Shown piece after piece: positions 7,145 through 16,080 of a stretch of DNA of 64,000 bases (position 1 is its first letter; the number at the start of each line of letters is the position of its first letter). The translations under genes and the position numbers were made by a program. Source of the stretch: Escherichia coli (GTDB lineage Bacteria; Pseudomonadota; Gammaproteobacteria; Enterobacterales; Enterobacteriaceae). Location of the stretch: the NCBI RefSeq assembly GCF_044647545.1, contig NZ_CP172818.1. One strand, written 5' to 3'. Below the pieces are notes generated by a model. The model was not told the DNA's origin and searched no databases. It saw only the letters and a list, made by a program, of their open reading frames with translations.

Positions 7145-7337
7145 TATTTTCCCTTTTCTGTTAATTATTGAGAATAATTATTACTTCACTTAATAAGCTG
7201 CGGATATAACATTCTGAACCGCAGCTATTTGTGAATCCTTTCACAGTTTAAATTTCCCCACGCGCATAGCCTTAATATCAGCACGCAATATTTATTTAGC
7301 GTTCGCCTTAATTACTCATAGCATTAAGGAAGATCAC

Positions 7338-9855: not shown

Positions 9856-10866
9856 TCATTTCTTACGCGCGTATTTCAGTGAATCCAGCGCTACGGCGAA
9901 GATAATAATCGCCCCTTTGATGATGTACTGCCAGTATGGGTTTACGCCGATATACGTCAGGCCATAGTTGATGACGGTAAAAATAATTACCCCGGTCACC
10001 ACGCCAATCACCGTCCCCACACCGCCGCTGAACGATACGCCGCCTACCACGCACGCCGCGATAGCATCCAGCTCATACATAAAGCCGAGGTTATTGGTGG
10101 CTGAGCCGATACGTCCGGCTTCTAACATCCCGCCGAAGGCATAGAACACACCAGACAACGCGTAGATCATCAGCAGGTTCAGGCCGACGTTGACACCAGA
10201 TACTTTCGCCGCTTCCGGGTTACCGCCAATGGCAAAAATGTTCTTACCGAAGCGGGTTTTGTTCCACAACACCCAGACGAACGCCACCGCAATCAACGCG
10301 TAGAAGGTGATGTAAGAGAGACGGAAACTCCCCAGCGCGACAAAGCCCTGAGCAAAGGTAGAGAAGCCACTGTCGAAACCAGAAATCGGCGACGCCCCGA
10401 CAAAGTCGTAATAGAGCGAGTTGATGCCATAGACGATGATCATCGTGCCGAGCGTGGTAATGAACGGCGTCACGTTGAGATAAGCGATAATCAGGCCGTT
10501 GATCAAACCGATCACCGCACCAATGGCACAGACAATCAGAATAACCAGCGCAATCGGCATCGTCGCCATTTCCGGGAACACTTTGTTGGCGTTATCCATG
10601 GACTGCAATAACGTCGCCGCTACTACTGCCGCCAGCCCCACCTGGCGACCTGCAGAAAGGTCGGTCCCCTGGGTGACAATTAACCCTGCCACACCAAGCG
10701 CGATAATAATACGCACCGATGACTGGGTGAGAATATTACTTAAGTTCAACAGACTTAAAAATGTTGGGTCCTGGAAAATAATAATCGCCAGCAAAACTAA
10801 AAGAACGACGTAAATACCGCCTTCTTTCAGGTAAGTAAGAAAACTTTTCTTATTTAACGCACTCAT
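9856..10866 (-). CDS. mglC: Galactose/methyl-galactoside ABC transporter permease
   Basis: 336 aa, MSALNKKSFLTYLKEGGIYVVLLVL. Confidence 0.95.
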   Translation of the reverse strand: MSALNKKSFLTYLKEGGIYVVLLVLLAIIIFQDPTFLSLLNLSNILTQSSVRIIIALGVAGLIVTQGTDLSAGRQVGLAAVVAATLLQSMDNANKVFPEMATMPIALVILIVCAIGAVIGLINGLIIAYLNVTPFITTLGTMIIVYGINSLYYDFVGASPISGFDSGFSTFAQGFVALGSFRLSYITFYALIAVAFVWVLWNKTRFGKNIFAIGGNPEAAKVSGVNVGLNLLMIYALSGVFYAFGGMLEAGRIGSATNNLGFMYELDAIAACVVGGVSFSGGVGTVIGVVTGVIIFTVINYGLTYIGVNPYWQYIIKGAIIIFAVALDSLKYARKK

Positions 10867-10881
10867 GGGAAGCCCCTAATC

Positions 10882-12402
10882 TTAAAGGTGCAAAGACGCA
10901 AGACGCAGAATTTCGCTTTGCGTTGTTGTTTTTGTATCGACAATTCCGGAAACGAGACCATTGCTCATGACCAGAATACGGTCTGTTATCCCTAACAACT
11001 CTGGCATTTCGGAGGAGATAATAATAATCCCCTTGCCTTTCTTCGCCAGTTCGGCAATTAACTGATAAATCTCAAACTTAGCCCCAACATCAATACCGCG
11101 CGTCGGTTCATCGAGCATTAATATTTCTGGTTGCGTTAACAGCCAGCGACCAATAATCACTTTTTGCTGATTACCACCGGAGAGCGAACCTATTTGCGTC
11201 CGATGACCTGGCGTTTTTACCCGCATCGAATCAATGACCCACTGGGTATCACTTTTCATCCGCGAATTATCCAGCAAGCCAACTTTATTTTTGTAGTTGC
11301 GAATATTGGAAATTAACGAGTTAAAACCGATATCCAGATAGGCATAAATTCCCGTTGAGCGGCGCTCCTCAGTTACCAGAGCAAATCCGTGGTTTATGGC
11401 TTCATTGGCATTATGGTTATTGATCTTTTTGCCGTGCAACGTAATGGTGCCAGCCGATTTCTCGCGAATACCAAATAACGTCTCAACAATATCGGTACGT
11501 TTCGCCCCCACCAGCCCGGCAATACCGAGGATCTCCCCTTTATGCAGATCAAACGAGACATCACGGATCGACGGCTGGCGCAGTGACGTCAGGTTACGCA
11601 CCTCGAGGATGACTTCGCCCGGCTTGTTTTCTTTGTCAGGGAAACGCTGGTTAAGAGAACGCCCAACCATCATGGCGATGATCTTGTCCATCGTCAGCCC
11701 TGCCAGCGGTTCGGTAGCGATCCACTGACCGTCGCGCAATACGGTAACTTCATCACATAACTGGAAGATTTCTTCCATTTTATGCGAGATATAAACAATA
11801 CCGCAGCCGCGCTCTTTTAATTTACGAATAATAGTGAACAGATGATTGACCTCTTTTTCGGTTAACGAAGAAGTCGGTTCATCCATAATCACAATTTTCG
11901 CGTTATAGGAAAACGCTTTGGCAATTTCGATCATCTGCATTTGCGAAACGGATAATGTGCCGACGCGTGCACGCGGATCGATATCAATATCCAGTTCATC
12001 AAAAATCGCTTTGGTTTCGCGGTACATTTTGTCTTGATCGACAAACATGCCTTTGGTGGGATATCGCCCCAGCCACATGTTATCCATCACCGAACGTTGT
12101 AATACCAGATTTAACTCCTGGTGTACCATCGAAATACCATTTTCCAGCGCTTCTTTGGCAGAATGGAAATCGATCTCTTTACCCTGGAATAAAATGGTGC
12201 CGGAGTCTTTTTGATAAATACCAAACAGGCATTTTAATAATGTCGATTTTCCTGCACCATTTTCCCCCATTAATGCATGGATAGAATGTGGTCGGACTTT
12301 TAAATTAACGTTATCAAGTGCCTTAACACCAGGAAAAGACTTGTTGATACCGCTCATTTCCAACAAGTATTCCCCGGAAGACGGAGTCGTTGAGCTGACC
12401 AT
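10882..12402 (-). CDS. mglA: Galactose/methyl-galactoside ABC transporter ATP-binding protein (duplicated ABC domains)
   Basis: 506 aa, [29 protein letters not shown]; Walker [10 protein letters not shown]. Confidence 0.95.
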
Positions 12403-12462
12403 ATAATTTTACCTTGTTGGCCATACAATAAGGGCGCAGTAAACAACTGCGCCCAATCAGTC

Positions 12463-13461
12463 TTATTTCTTGCTGAATTCAGCCAGGTTGTCTTTATCTA
12501 CGCCAACATAAGGTACGCGGACCACTTTGTTGTCGATTTTCCAGTTGGTGCCATCAGCCGCACCTTTGCCATCGGCCAGGTTTTTCGCCAAATCAAAGGT
12601 CGCTTTCGCCTGGTTGTTAGCATCGTTCAGTACGGTGCCCGCCAGTGCACCGGATTTCACCAGCGCCAGCGCTTCTGGCAGCGCATCGACGCCAAACACC
12701 GGAATGCTGGACTTGTTGTGTGCTTTCAGTGCTTCTACCGCGCCCATTGCCATCGCATCGTTGTTGGCGATAACCACTTCGATTTTGTTGGCGTTCGGGC
12801 CAGATAGCCAGGCGTCCATCTTATCTTTCGCCTGAGCGGTATCCCACATAGCGGTATCTAACTGTAACTGTTCAGTTTTGATGCCTTTGTCGTTCAATTC
12901 TTTAATCACGTAAGTGGTACGTGCTTCTGCATCCGGATGGCCCGGCTCACCTTTCAGCAGTACGAACTGAATCTGACCGTCTTTGTTCAGATCCCAACCC
13001 TGATTCGCCGCCCAGTGTTTAGCAATCAAATCGCCCTGAATAATGCCGGACTCTTTGGAGTCAGTGCCAACGTAGTAGGCTTTGTCGTAGCTATCCAGCG
13101 CCTTACGAGACGGTTCTTTGTTGAAGAAAACCACCGGCACGTTTTGCCCACGCGCTTTCTCAATCACCGTACCCGCAGCTGCCGGGTCAACCAGGTTGAT
13201 TGCCAGTGCCTTCACCCCTTTCGCCAGCAATACGTCGATCTGATCGTTCTGCTTGGACTGGTCATTCTGAGAATCATTCATCAGCAGCTGAACATCTGGC
13301 GCGGCTTTCGCATCTTGCTCAATAGCCTTGCGCACTACAGACATAAAGTTATCGTCGTACTTATAGATTGTTACACCAATGCGAGTATCAGCAGCGTGTG
13401 CAGCGGCACCGAATAACATGCTGGCCATCACAGCAGACAGGGTTAACACCTTCTTATTCAT
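12463..13461 (-). CDS. mglB: Periplasmic D-galactose/D-glucose-binding protein
   Basis: 332 aa, [39 protein letters not shown]. Confidence 0.96.
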
Positions 13462-13712
13462 GGTATCTCCGGTTTTTCTTATGCAGGGTAGTGCTTGAGA
13501 TAAATGCTCGGCGGGGCAGTAGAGTTAATGAAGTGTTACTGAACGCCGAAGCTCACTTTTTAAAATTCGTTCTTCCATGCCCGGTAACGCTCCAGAAAAC
13601 GGCTTTAATTGTTGTTATGACGCTATTACCTCGGTGAAAGTGATTATTCACTGTTACATACGGGTTACAACGTTAAAACGGTGCAATCATAGCTATCACA
13701 TTGTTAAGATAC

Positions 13713-13745
13713 TGTGAAATCACTCACAGATTGAAAGCGGTTACA
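13713..13745 (-). promoter_or_regulatory. mgl promoter module: consensus CRP site TGTGAAATCACTCACA (13713-13728) abutting a Gal-operator-like site (13729-13745, ATGTAACCGCTTTCAAT on the minus strand)
   Basis: Perfect TGTGA-N6-TCACA palindrome; adjacent sequence resembles GalR/GalS operator half-sites; plausible -10 TATGAT on the minus strand at 13686-13691. Confidence 0.55.
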
Positions 13746-14781
13746 TCGCCTGATTTGTTGAGTTAGTGATCGCCGCCGCATTCTGGCGCGTTGCGACAGA
13801 ATGACGACGCACTAACGTTGGCATAAAACAGTGGCTGGCACGAGGATCAATATTGCCTGCTGCCCCCTGCAAGGCCAGTTCGGTGGCTAATTTAGCCATT
13901 GAAGCAATGGGATAACGCACGGTCGTTAATTGCGGGTCGGTGTAACGGGCGATGGGAATATCATCGAAACCGATGATTGAGAGATGTAACGGAATCGCAA
14001 TGCCATTATCTTTTAATGCTGTCAGTGCGCCAGCAGCCATATTGTCGTTATAAGCAAATACAGCGGTAAGTTGTAGATTGCGCCCCAGCAGTTCAACCAT
14101 CGCCGCCTCACCGCCCGGCATGTCCGGCGTGCCAGTGCCAATCCAGCTTTCCGGCGGAATAATATTCTGCTCTTTCAACGCACTCATCCAGCCTGCTTTA
14201 CGCATGGCGTCATCTTCAATGCCGTGGCTGGAAGAAAGATAACCAATACGTTGATGACCGTTATTCAGCAACATGCGCGTCGCCATTCGGGCACCGCTGA
14301 GATTATCCAGGCAAACGCAACGATGGGCGTACCCCGGCACAACGCGGTTGATTAACACCATACCGGGAATGTTATCCATAAATTGTGCCAGTTCATCGTC
14401 ACTCAATGCTTTTGAGTGAACAATCAACGCATTACAACGCTGGCGAATTAACACCTCAATGGCGTGACGCTCTTTTTCCGCTTCATGATAGCTATTGCCG
14501 ATTAGCACGTATTTCTGATGCTGCTGGGCGACCAGATCCACCGCTTTTACCAGCGCGCCGAAAAACGCATCAGAAACGTCCATCACCACCACGCCAATGG
14601 TGTCGCTAACCTGAGTTGCCAGCGCCTGGGCATTGGCATTTGGTCGATAATCCAGCTCACTCACGGCTTTCATTACTGCTTCACGCGTGTCGGCACTGAC
14701 CAGCGTGCTGTTATTGAGCACTCGGGAAACCGTTGCCACAGAGACGCCAGCCTGACGCGCTACATCACGAATGGTGATCAT
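13741..14781 (-). CDS. galS: Galactose isorepressor GalS (LacI family)
   Basis: Track ORF trimmed to [25 protein letters not shown] (346 aa); N-terminal HTH. Confidence 0.93.
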
Positions 14782-14858
14782 ATTCACTACCTGTTATGAG
14801 ATTGCAGTAAATGACTGCTTGCTGGCGGCTATTTTGTCAGCACTGAATACAGGACTTC

Positions 14859-14893
14859 GTGAATCGAGTCACAGCAATGGAAACGGTTACAGC
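14859..14893 (-). promoter_or_regulatory. galS promoter module: CRP-like site GTGAATCGAGTCACA (14859-14873) plus Gal-operator-like TGGAAACGGTTACAGC (14878-14893)
   Basis: Same CRP-plus-operator arrangement as upstream of mglB; operator matches the gal operator consensus at about 12 of 14 positions. Confidence 0.5.
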
Positions 14894-14922
14894 CGTTTTG
14901 TTAACGAATGTGATCCAGATCG

Positions 14923-16080
14923 TTATCTTGATGTTTTAGATATTGCCGGTCCGGCAGCACGCAAAGTTAACTGACGCCAGAGCCATTCCACCGGCCCCTG
15001 GCGGAAGTAACGCAGCCAGATAACAGAGAAGAAGATATTCGCCAGCCATACCGGAATAACAAACGCCAGCAGCTCCAGACGGTCAAACTGCATAAACAAA
15101 CTGAGGTGGTAAAAAAGCGTGGTACAAATCAGCGTTTGCAATAGATAGTTGGTCAGTGCCATCCGTCCGACACAGGCGATTGCCAGCACCAGCTTAAAGC
15201 GGCTTAATTGCGGCCAGAAGCCATAAAACAGCGACGCATAGCCAATCGCCTGAAACGGCGCACTCAGTTCCCGCGGCATTTGAAGTAAGAATGCACACCA
15301 GCGATACGCCCAGTCCAGCTGCCATTGCAGGGCGATGGCAGGAAGGTTAATGGTCACCCCAATCGCCACCAGCACAAAACCAGTACGACGATAGTGACGT
15401 AAGCTGAACTGCCCTTTCAGCCAGCCGCTGCGCATCAATGCGGCACCAATGAGCATCATCCCTGCCAGTTGCCAGCCATACTGTGCGCCCAGTGCCAGTA
15501 AACTGTTCCCAACACCATCGGCACGATTACTGATCGCTTCAACGCCGCCGTGAAGCTTCCAGTATTTTTCATACAAAATAGCCGATGCATCCGGCGTCCA
15601 GGCGCGGCTGGTCTGGCTGTCGGAAATCAGCCCCAATAACAGCAAAACGCCAAGCCCCACCAGATAAAGCATGACGCCTGTATTAAACAGGCTTTTTACC
15701 GATGGCGCATCGCGCACCAGCCGCCAGCAGATTAAGCCCACCAGCCCGTAAGCCAGCAGAATATCGCCGTCCCAGAACAATAAACCGTGAATAAAGCCCA
15801 GCAAGACTAACAGCGTTAACCGCGACTGGATCCAGCGTCTGCCACGGGGCAGCAACATTTGCAGGCCAGCACCAAACAGCAGCGCAAAAAGCGTGAGGAA
15901 TTTCACCTGGCCGATGAGATCGAGAAATGCCCAGGTCCATGCATCCTGCGGCGTAATAGCGCCGTACCAGGCGGGATTGAGATAAGCCGCCTTTGGTAGC
16001 CCAAAGGCGCTGATGTTTAATAGCAGGATCCCCAGAATGGCGACGCCGCGAACAAAATCGAGCGTGACGTTGCGCTCCAT
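14923..16080 (-). CDS. yeiB: DUF418-family inner membrane protein YeiB
   Basis: 385 aa, MERNVTLDFVRGVAILGILLLNISAFGLP. Confidence 0.9.
   Translation of the reverse strand: MERNVTLDFVRGVAILGILLLNISAFGLPKAAYLNPAWYGAITPQDAWTWAFLDLIGQVKFLTLFALLFGAGLQMLLPRGRRWIQSRLTLLVLLGFIHGLLFWDGDILLAYGLVGLICWRLVRDAPSVKSLFNTGVMLYLVGLGVLLLLGLISDSQTSRAWTPDASAILYEKYWKLHGGVEAISNRADGVGNSLLALGAQYGWQLAGMMLIGAALMRSGWLKGQFSLRHYRRTGFVLVAIGVTINLPAIALQWQLDWAYRWCAFLLQMPRELSAPFQAIGYASLFYGFWPQLSRFKLVLAIACVGRMALTNYLLQTLICTTLFYHLSLFMQFDRLELLAFVIPVWLANIFFSVIWLRYFRQGPVEWLWRQLTLRAAGPAISKTSR

Follow-up and report, generated by a model that had tools for sequence, protein, structure and literature searches.

CRP and Gal-operator modules at the mglBAC and galS promoters and the long mglB leader in an Escherichia coli chromosome

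Two modules, each consisting of a Gal operator followed by a CRP site, precede mglB and galS in the 64,000-nt stretch of the Escherichia coli chromosome analyzed here (contig NZ_CP172818.1, henceforth termed the window). We assign them, with a probability of roughly 93%, as core control regions of the galactose regulon, namely those of mglBp, the promoter of the high-affinity galactose/glucose ABC transporter operon mglBAC, and of galSp, the promoter of the isorepressor gene. Both promoters and the long mglB leader are already known, and the sequence only re-derives the textbook architecture of the gal regulon. Both promoters are said to have been described as members of this regulon by Weickert and Adhya in 1993. 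Compared with the E. coli promoters recorded in RegulonDB/EcoCyc, locus and sites are the same and nothing of substance differs. The value of the analysis is modest and lies in conserved blocks within the mglB leader and in a candidate CRP identity, at -93.5, for a footprint at galSp.

Operator and CRP modules upstream of mglB and galS

The region shows the gene order yeiB-galS-mglBAC, entirely on the minus strand, as are all features described below; window coordinates are converted to MG1655 positions by adding 2,226,887. According to the list of open reading frames and to the RefSeq annotation for E. coli DNA of identical sequence, mglB, encoding the periplasmic galactose/glucose-binding protein, occupies 12463-13461 (ATG at 13461). 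The gene for the 346-aa Gal isorepressor, galS (MITIRDVA...), spans 13741-14781 (ATG at 14781; open reading frames and RefSeq), and gene order places yeiB at 14923-16080. Identity of galS-mglB with E. coli held for 5425 of 5426 genomes. Between 13400 and 14950 the differences from K-12 amount to 13 substitutions in galS and only three in the leader (13625, 13635 and 13636), the promoter region being exactly that of K-12 although the strain is not K-12.

Upstream of mglB, sequence and RegulonDB locate the 16-bp mgl operator (the GalS/GalR site mglO, ATGTAACCGCTTTCAA, 13746..13731), centered at -59.5 of mglBp and followed after 2 nt by the CRP 16-mer TGTGAGTGATTTCACA (13728..13713, center 13720.5, -41.5), which has no mismatch to TGTGA-N6-TCACA. 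Upstream of galS, the external operator CTGTAACCGTTTCCAT (14892..14877, center -61.5; sequence and RegulonDB) is separated by 3 nt from the CRP 16-mer TGTGACTCGATTCACG (14873..14858, center 14865.5, one mismatch), the operator again on the upstream side. RegulonDB, as reproduced in the Reg-Seq supplement, assigns mglBp a CRP position of -41.5 and a GalR/GalS position of -59.5; for galSp it gives GalR/GalS at -61.5 and is the only source for CRP at -42.5. The first-pass annotation had placed such modules at 13713-13745 and 14859-14893, which is right to within 1 nt, and had called them matching, in agreement with their shared operator-then-CRP order and with the Reg-Seq supplement, whose comment on mglBp reads 'Same architecture as galSp'. 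It had also put the mgl module about 250 bp upstream of the mglB ATG and abutting the galS stop codon. The distance from the CRP center measures 259.5 nt, and the adjacency is real but closer than abutment, as the galS TAA (13743..13741) falls within the operator itself.

A third site, the galS internal operator GTGGCAACGGTTTCCC, was read from the sequence at 14724..14739 (center 14731.5, +92.5), within the part of galS that codes for the helix-turn-helix; RegulonDB lists it at +91.5 for GalR and +92.5 for GalS. It shares with ATGTAACCGCTTTCAA and CTGTAACCGTTTCCAT the 16-bp hyphenated dyad nTGTAACCGnTTTCAn with central CG that defines operators of the LacI-family repressors GalR and GalS.

Single CRP-like cores do arise by chance: some 1.9 are expected per window and 7 matches with at most one mismatch were found. 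Nothing else favors the idea that the paired motifs are a fortuitous resemblance without regulatory role, which we consider scarcely credible. The joint pattern of operator, gap and CRP core matched exactly twice in the window, at mgl and galS, versus 0.00 times in 100 shuffles, and experimental footprints, mutations and annotations exist. Spacing is moreover invariant across species. When 80 loci from as many Enterobacteriaceae species were compared, 79 carried a perfect mgl CRP core with the 2-nt gap and an operator of the form ATGTAACCGnTT(T/C)CAA, and the galS module was found in 77, always with the 3-nt gap. Within these 79 mgl modules the operator 5' half TGTAACCG is invariant and the 3' half varies to a limited extent; the galS operator varies in its 5' half too, reading TGTAAGCG or TGTAAACG in many genera. 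Of the 77 loci, 76 share TGTGA-N6-TCACG as the galSp CRP core; L058 alone has TGTGA-N6-TCTCA. One mglB homologue came without an upstream module, that of locus L024, which shares its label, Citrobacter amalonaticus, with L009 and L010.

Both promoters combine the CRP site with a usable -10. At mglBp the hexamer TATGAT was read at 13686..13691 (-12..-7), and no -35 is recognizable in the sequence, where CAGTAT occupies -35..-30. Across the 79 loci (C)TATGAT hardly varies and keeps its distance from the CRP site, except that one extra base precedes it in three of them. At galSp the sequence contains the extended -10 TGaCAAAAT (14831..14839), of which CTG and the last three bases of the hexamer (AAT) are conserved among 81 sequences. 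Class II CRP-dependent sigma-70 promoters are recognized by a 22-bp CRP site with its TGTGA-N6-TCACA core, a center near -41.5, and a -10 without a real -35; mglBp has all of these, and galSp qualifies with one core mismatch and its extended -10. We take a CRP position of -41.5 to be class II in standard Busby-Ebright nomenclature, whereas the Reg-Seq supplement labels it 'class-I'. Reg-Seq recovered an activator footprint at the CRP site of mglBp and at that of galSp, and GalR/GalS footprints at neither promoter.

These elements suggest how the modules may work. Both mglBp and galSp are sigma-70 promoters with a usable -10 (TATGAT and TGnCAAAAT, respectively) and no real -35, so that cAMP-CRP would be required at the class II position (-41.5 or -42.5), where it overlaps the -35 region. 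The 16-bp operator, whose center lies upstream of the CRP center by 18 bp at mgl and by 19 bp at galS, would be occupied by a GalS/GalR dimer; in class II complexes the RNA polymerase alpha C-terminal domain uses this segment of DNA. Bound there, the repressor would block CRP-dependent activation, a steric or anti-activation mode that we infer, and D-galactose would free it; galS would in addition be autoregulated through the second operator at +92.5. A need for cAMP-CRP at mglBAC and galS is also implied by the literature, which names galR and galETKM as the only ones whose in vitro transcription does without regulatory proteins.

A close parallel is galETKM P1 (OE -60.5, CRP -41.5, OI +53.5), with which the modules have in common the operator-then-CRP geometry as well as repressors, activator and inducer, and where the centers are 19 bp apart as at galS. 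In contrast, galETKM has a second, overlapping promoter, P2, and is repressed by OE-OI looping with HU, whereas mgl has a single annotated operator and 18-bp spacing, and the galS operators lie 153 bp apart (-61.5 to +92.5, there being no position 0; 14884.5 minus 14731.5).

Selection experiments bear on the operator as well. A derepressing G->T change obtained in chemostats, described as '3 bp from the end of mglD/galS', maps to the central G of the mgl operator at 13738, and under glucose limitation mutations in galS and upstream of mglB recur. Derepression of mglBAC by mutations in mglO or galS is, classically, the step with which E. coli begins to adapt to this condition.

The mglB transcription start and leader

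The transcription start of mglBAC is the G at 13679 (NC_000913.3 2,240,566). In the 5'-triphosphate-enriched, genome-wide map of Kim et al. 2012, the mglB 5'UTR measures 218 nt, and the upstream 51-mer in the table of transcription start sites (TSSs), ending ...GATTGCACCG, stops exactly at this base. It lies 41.5 bp from the CRP center and 7 nt after TATGAT, and the RegulonDB positions for CRP and GalR/GalS lead to the same +1. The long leader (13462..13679) is thus real and already in the literature, a published description giving the mglBAC 5'UTR as 'about 250 bp'; predicted lengths across 79 loci range from 188 to 219 nt. Near its end, the Shine-Dalgarno GGAG (13467..13470) lies within the almost invariant block AACCGGAGATACCATG. 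The first-pass annotation, which had pointed to published start mapping as a check, had proposed either a leader of about 200 nt or undetected promoter elements closer to mglB. The mapped start bears out the former, and for the latter we found little beyond a weak 5' end at 140 nt and PhoB binding in the early leader. The map of Kim et al. 2012 lists no start closer than about 50 bp to the ATG, and the CRP site is one at which an activator footprint was recovered. The Cappable-seq supplement contained none of the mglB coordinates searched for.

The second, weak 5' end of Kim et al. 2012 lies at 13601 and gives the 140-nt leader; after terminator-exonuclease enrichment it had 9 reads, against 6 for the 218-nt start. 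Both counts are low and come from exponential-phase cells, in which mgl is poorly expressed. The end at 13601 could reflect a minor promoter or a processing product. Cleavage of the 218-nt leader by an RNase, with no promoter involved, is a minority reading of some plausibility: the stretch that contains 13601, AACAACAAUUAAAGCC, is A/U-rich and poorly structured, the leader as a whole has no stable fold, no convincing conserved promoter is apparent upstream of it, and the reads are few. A monophosphate cleavage product should, however, be depleted from a library enriched for 5'-triphosphate ends, although such enrichment is leaky.

We consider it unlikely that a second promoter in the leader, CRP-independent or PhoB-assisted, contributes materially and makes the effective leader shorter. 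Its candidates are 13601, whose 9 reads did survive the terminator exonuclease, and a minus-strand sigma-70 scan match, TTGTAA-16-AATAAT at 13670..13643. The latter was rejected as a leader promoter, since the 2 promoter-like scan matches in the region do not exceed the 2.3 expected by chance and the table of Kim et al. 2012 has no TSS about 7 nt downstream of AATAAT. As to 13601, the sequence around 13601-13640 is poorly conserved in an alignment of 54 leaders, and the -35-like TTGCCG found upstream of it in K-12 is TCACCG in this strain owing to the substitutions at 13635 and 13636. The second promoter is also disfavored by the in vitro literature, since mglBAC is missing from the operons said there to need no regulatory proteins for transcription.

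PhoB binding enters the same argument. The early leader contains an 18-bp, PhoB box-like direct repeat, TGTAACCCGTATGTAACA (13652..13669, +11..+28), identical to the motif called from ChIP-seq by Fitzgerald et al. 2023, whose peak is centered at MG1655 2,240,543 (window 13656). In that study, deletion of phoB lowered sigma70 occupancy at the mglB leader site more than 2-fold, which would favor a PhoB-assisted promoter, but the difference in mglB RNA (1,076 versus 772 for the delta-phoB comparison) was not significant. The leader thus holds a PhoB-bound, direct-repeat Pho box of 18 bp, but not one placed about 10 bp upstream of a usable -10 and coupled to PhoB-dependent RNA: the sequence 10 nt past the box is CACTTT, and AATAAT begins only 4 nt past it. 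Like the promoterless PhoB sites of Fitzgerald et al. 2023, TGTAACCCGTATGTAACA is among their 65 ChIP-seq regions and lacks a significant RNA change; unlike them, it is intergenic, shows the sigma70 effect, and is strongly conserved across genera in its promoter-distal half, where the second repeat, ATGTAAC, is nearly invariant. The effect of PhoB at this repeat in the leader DNA may be weak.

A predicted Spot 42 target beside the ribosome-binding site

Duplex prediction and conservation point to a Spot 42 pairing site at 13482..13510. When 36-nt leader windows were compared with Spot 42 nt 1-62, the best duplex joined Spot 42 nt 1-25 to leader nt 170-198 with an energy of -24.8 kcal/mol, no more than a modest gain over shuffles, of which 6 in 200 did as well; an unrestricted RNAduplex run against the leader was discarded for its unrealistic long-range duplexes. 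The seed target UACCCUGC (13490..13483) pairs with Spot 42 nt 1-8, the pairing extending to nt 11-24, and ACTACCCTGCAT, together with the seed target, is nearly invariant across the aligned leaders. Complementarity to the unstructured Spot 42 seed near the ribosome-binding site is therefore present. Salmonella (L043) has UACCCUAC, a perfect complement of nt 1-8, where the E. coli seed duplex carries one G-U pair. In Salmonella, Spot 42 represses mglB through this kind of 5'UTR site, as validated by compensatory mutations, and an Hfq CLIP peak lies upstream of the site (Holmqvist et al. 2016).

The predicted E. coli site probably works in the same way, as judged from this correspondence. Transcription of mglBAC from 13679 yields a 218-nt leader whose last ~40 nt would then bear the Spot 42/Hfq target beside the ribosome-binding site. 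As CRP activates mglBp and represses Spot 42, the two would act in a coherent feed-forward loop and so sharpen catabolite control. Beisel and Storz reportedly described coherent feed-forward targets of Spot 42 (spf) and CRP in 2011. As in such targets, mglB is a CRP-activated sugar-uptake gene whose near-RBS 5'UTR pairs with the 5' seed, with Hfq nearby. The leader may thereby be one meeting place of CRP, the small RNA Spot 42 and, possibly, PhoB.

Leader conservation without a conserved fold

Spot 42/Hfq and the ribosome-binding site account for no more than the final ~40 of the 218 nt in the leader. In the alignment of 54 sequences from different Enterobacteriaceae species, 38% of leader columns are at least 90% conserved, versus 12% of fourfold-degenerate sites in mglB. 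Two blocks stand far above synonymous-site conservation: +20..+32 TATGTAACAGTGA, which shares bases with the PhoB-bound repeat and precedes the GTGAnTAATCAC palindrome, and +85..+98 CTGGAGCGTTACCG, followed by a conserved GGAAGA.

Such blocks, together with the conserved leader length, might suggest a structured cis-regulatory RNA, riboswitch-like or an attenuator, responding to a ligand or to translational state. The palindrome GUGAnUAAUCAC at +29..+40 (88% paired, few compensatory changes) lends marginal support to a 4-bp hairpin. Folding of the predicted leader, as the first-pass annotation had recommended, nevertheless revealed nothing unusual: the minimum free energy of the whole leader has a z-score of -0.54, 48 of 200 shuffles folding equally well, and RNAalifold on the 54 sequences gave essentially no consensus structure (-0.07 kcal/mol). 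In a scan of 12300-15100 (E<=1), no Rfam family matched the leader. The sole hit, a eukaryotic lncRNA inside mglB, was judged spurious. Neither an unusual fold nor a covariation-supported consensus was thus found, the minus strand of the leader has no terminator-like hairpin, and conservation runs in linear sequence blocks, which together make a structured RNA very improbable. A 17-codon upstream open reading frame starting at 13578 was likewise rejected, because 51 of the 54 sequences have ACG or AAG in place of its ATG.

The conserved blocks could instead serve phosphate-linked modulation by PhoB, a second small RNA, CsrA, pairing with the Shine-Dalgarno sequence, or attenuation by Rho over the long untranslated leader. 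Two GGA motifs 18 nt apart suit the CsrA idea, and UUCUGG could pair with CCGGAG as an anti-Shine-Dalgarno element. In our literature search no specific report emerged that links CsrA or Rho to the mglB leader, and one passing statement counts mglBAC among genes affected by Rho-dependent terminators.

A CRP-like site upstream of the galSp module

For galS, the positions given relative to the start in RegulonDB, combined with the site coordinates, put the inferred +1 at the A at 14823, with a leader of ~42 nt; no galS entry was found in the TSS table of Kim et al. 2012. Farther upstream, conservation in 81 sequences singles out a CRP-like candidate site, AACGATCTGGATCACA (14909..14924, centered at -93.5 of galSp), within a nearly invariant block of ~35 nt (14927..14893) that lies between the stop codon of yeiB and the operator. 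Near -95 of galSp an activator footprint is described in the Reg-Seq preprint, which assigned no factor to it; it was most pronounced in stationary phase and on acetate and galactose. This footprint may be a second CRP site centered at -93.5, the assignment to CRP being suggested by the conserved motif. The joint reading, in which the galSp footprint is such a site and the two conserved leader blocks constitute an extra layer of mglBAC control, is tentative, and we regard it as somewhat improbable. If the -93.5 site is indeed bound by CRP, galSp would be a tandem-CRP (class III) promoter.

Identity of the mgl and galS modules

The two operator-CRP modules that the first-pass annotation had placed upstream of mglB and galS were recovered at coordinates that agree with its own to within 1 base. 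In coding-strand (minus) orientation, the mgl sequence is ATGTAACCGCTTTCAA-tc-TGTGAGTGATTTCACA, with the operator at 13746..13731 and a mismatch-free CRP core at 13728..13713, and the galS module reads CTGTAACCGTTTCCAT-tgc-TGTGACTCGATTCACG, with the operator at 14892..14877 and a CRP core carrying one mismatch at 14873..14858. The operator and CRP centres are 18 bp apart at mgl and 19 bp apart at galS. A combined pattern of operator, 2-3 nt gap and CRP core matches the window exactly twice, at these modules, and gave no match in 100 dinucleotide-preserving shuffles. Besides that of mgl, the window holds one other perfect CRP core, TGTGAATCCTTTCACA, at 7230-7245 (plus strand). The mgl module had also been described as abutting the galS stop codon; the proximity holds, but the TAA (13743..13741) falls inside the operator rather than beside it. 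An internal operator, GTGGCAACGGTTTCCC (14739..14724, minus), lies within the helix-turn-helix coding segment of galS.

The genes galS (13741-14781), mglB (12463-13461), mglA (10882-12402), mglC (9856-10866) and yeiB (14923-16080) all lie on the minus strand. The region 13300-15000 is up to 100% identical to E. coli chromosomes, and galS, mglB and yeiB are annotated on its counterpart in 5425 of 5426 complete E. coli genomes. The strain is not K-12, and 16 differences from MG1655 (window coordinate + 2,226,887 = MG1655 coordinate) occur across 13400-14950; within the mglB leader, K-12 differs at 13625, 13635 and 13636 only.

The modules are the annotated promoters mglBp and galSp themselves, in a non-K-12 E. 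coli. RegulonDB, via the Reg-Seq preprint supplement, places GalR/GalS at -59.5 and CRP at -41.5 of mglBp, with no extra operator, and GalR/GalS at -61.5 and CRP at -42.5 of galSp, with an extra operator at +91.5/+92.5. These positions agree with the measured operator-CRP geometry at both promoters and place the mgl +1 at window 13679 and the galS +1 at 14823. The Reg-Seq experiments recovered CRP activator footprints at both promoters and repressor footprints at neither. Everything that the first-pass annotation flagged is already known from the literature and RegulonDB.

The arrangement parallels that of galE P1 (OE at -60.5, CRP at -41.5). CRP at -41.5 is class II in standard nomenclature (Busby and Ebright), and the "class-I" label given to this position in the Reg-Seq preprint is a slip. 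At mglBp, TATGAT occupies -12..-7 and nothing resembles a -35 element, and galSp has an extended -10, TGaCAAAAT; both core promoters fit CRP dependence. In work from the Semsey group, in vitro transcription without regulatory proteins was limited to galR and galETKM, which implies that mglBAC and galS need cAMP-CRP.

Mutation of a G near the galS end is published to give semi-constitutive mglBAC expression, and this base is the central G of the mgl operator (13738). In a later study, galS was the most frequently mutated gene, and the 280 bp ahead of mglB showed a cluster of mutations at positions 1-3. Beyond the demonstrated binding sites, transcription start, CRP effect and operator mutation, we infer an anti-activation step. 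cAMP-CRP at the class II position would recruit and activate RNA polymerase at promoters lacking a -35, and GalS, the main mgl regulator, or GalR would occupy the operator directly upstream, a segment held by the polymerase alpha C-terminal domain in class II complexes. Bound repressor would thereby prevent activation until D-galactose releases it, and galS would repress itself through its external and internal operators.

Transcription start and length of the mglB leader

The leader of about 200 nt on mglBAC, the first of two alternatives originally offered for the distant module, is borne out by published start mapping. In a genome-wide map of 5'-triphosphate-enriched ends from mid-exponential MG1655, made with terminator exonuclease and modified 5'-RACE, Kim et al. 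(2012) list two mglB starts. For the first, the 5'UTR measures 218 nt and the 51-mer given as upstream sequence, CTGTGAGTGATTTCACAG...GATTGCACCG, ends on the G at window 13679, the same base as the start implied by CRP at -41.5. This coincidence to the base sets the leader at 218 nt; a long mglB 5'UTR is also on record elsewhere, at "about 250 bp in both species", namely E. coli and Yersinia pestis.

The second end, with a 140-nt 5'UTR (window 13601), had a low count, 9 reads against 6 for the main 218-nt start under non-inducing conditions. It lies in A/U-rich, poorly conserved surroundings. Ahead of it, K-12 has a weak TTGCCG-18-AACAAT, in which TTGCCG reads TCACCG in this strain. This -35-like TTGCCG, which precedes AACAAT by 18 nt and lies ahead of the 140-nt end, is part of TTTTGCC in K-12; this strain and related species have TTTCACC or TTTTACC instead, so the weak promoter-like element may be confined to the K-12 lineage. 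The 140-nt end may mark either a minor promoter or leakage of a processed end.

In a scan of the minus strand from the galS stop to mglB (13462-13741), no intrinsic-terminator-like hairpin was found. Without termination by Rho, galS transcripts may therefore continue into mglBAC; one paper lists mglBAC with genes affected by Rho-dependent terminators.

Conservation across Enterobacteriaceae

An MglB scan of one genome collection yielded 80 Enterobacteriaceae loci, one per species. Of these, 79 carry a perfect CRP core 237-268 nt ahead of the mglB ATG, and the operator's TGTAACCG precedes the CRP start by exactly 17 nt. The mglBp -10, (C)TATGAT, is nearly invariant; its distance to CRP is fixed in 76/79 loci, and in the remaining 3 it is displaced downstream by 1 nt. 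Predicted leaders are 188-219 nt across the 79. The galS module is present in 77 loci, always with a 3-nt gap, and has the CRP half-site TCACG in 76 and TCTCA in one (L058). Given the invariant gaps at both promoters, the one-base spacing difference between mgl and galS is itself conserved.

Among the loci compared, the galS stop codon overlaps the mgl operator only in Escherichia and one further locus (L070), where GalS has 346 aa. In most other genera GalS has 340-341 aa (5-6 residues shorter) and its stop codon precedes the operator by 12-15 nt; at one locus (L056) it has 344 aa (2 residues shorter), with the stop 3 nt upstream.

Unlike the other 79, the Citrobacter amalonaticus strain S646 locus (L024) encodes a 95%-identical MglB without an operator/CRP module in the 450 nt upstream, and may be rearranged or a second copy. 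In many non-Escherichia genera (loci L017-L081, e.g. L030:1760-1790), the mglBp -10 sits in a perfect inverted repeat, GCTGAC-TATGAT-GTCAGC, which is absent from E. coli (GATAGC-TATGAT-TGCACC); in those genera it may bind another factor.

Selection on the leader and a predicted Spot 42 site

As an RNA, the leader is not notably structured. Folding it, a check proposed at the outset, gave -45.9 kcal/mol (z = -0.54), RNAalifold on 54 aligned leaders returned essentially no consensus structure, and an Rfam search of the leader gave no match. Nevertheless, 38% of leader columns are at least 90% conserved versus 12% of mglB fourfold-degenerate sites in the same genomes, which indicates selection. 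Mean conservation exceeds 90% in four blocks, +20..+32, +85..+98, +186..+201 and +203..+218, the last two of which are explained by a Spot 42 site and what follows it.

In Salmonella, Holmqvist et al. (2016) located an Hfq CLIP peak within the mglB 5'UTR and, downstream of this peak, a conserved site through which Spot 42 acts to repress mglB. They demonstrated the repression with deletion, pulse expression and compensatory mutations, and proposed a CRP/Spot 42 feed-forward loop. Here, the best duplex among the leader windows forms between Spot 42 nt 1-25 and leader nt 170-198 (13510..13482) at -24.8 kcal/mol, an energy matched by 6 of 200 shuffles. The seed target UACCCUGC (13490..13483, minus) lies within the nearly invariant ACTACCCTGCAT, and the Salmonella allele, UACCCUAC, complements Spot 42 nt 1-8 perfectly. 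The next elements of the leader are an A-rich tract and the invariant AACCGGAGATACCATG. By analogy with Salmonella, the 218-nt leader would present a Spot 42/Hfq site beside the RBS after initiation, and at low cAMP, when Spot 42 is high, residual mglB mRNA would be silenced.

Other conserved elements

The block +20..+32 overlaps a published PhoB site. In low phosphate, Fitzgerald et al. (2023) found a ChIP-seq peak centred at MG1655 2,240,543 (window 13656) with the motif TGTAACCCGTATGTAACA, a direct repeat TGTAAC-N5-TGTAAC at 13669..13652 (minus; +11..+28). Deletion of phoB lowered sigma70 occupancy there more than 2-fold; mglB RNA went from 1,076 to 772, a change that was not significant. 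As read from the sequence, the box does not lie 10 bp from a usable -10, so the arrangement is not that of a canonical PhoB promoter. Of the two repeats, the promoter-distal one (ATGTAAC) hardly varies between genera; in genera other than Escherichia, Citrobacter and Salmonella, the proximal one is CTGAAAC, with a 1-nt shift. The Gal operator likewise has TGTAAC as its left half-site.

Directly after the PhoB repeat lies the palindrome GTGAATAATCAC (consensus GTGATTAATCAC; 13640-13651, minus; +29..+40). Read as a 4-bp hairpin, it shows 88% pairing and a few compensatory variants (e.g. CTGA...TCAG, GCAACGTTGC); it may act either as an RNA hairpin or as a DNA site. The block +85..+98 is CTGGAGCGTTACCG, followed by a conserved GGAAGA; our literature search found no function for it. 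The conserved leader block CTGGAGCGTTACCGnnCAnGGAAGA (~13570-13596, minus), to which the papers searched likewise assign no function, has two GGA motifs ~18 nt apart, a CsrA-like spacing, and its UUCUGG could pair with the SD CCGGAG.

Upstream of galSp, the ~35 nt from the yeiB stop to the galS operator (14927..14893, minus) show almost no variation across 81 enterobacterial sequences, with the consensus GATAACGATCTGGATCACAATCATTAACAAAACGG. Inside this block, a CRP-like site, AACGATCTGGATCACA (14909-14924, minus), has its centre at -93.5 of galSp and lies 51 bp from the annotated CRP site of that promoter. The Reg-Seq preprint reports an unidentified activator footprint at ~-95 under high-cAMP-type conditions, for which this candidate second CRP site is a plausible identity. 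The block also contains two GATC sites, 2 bp apart.
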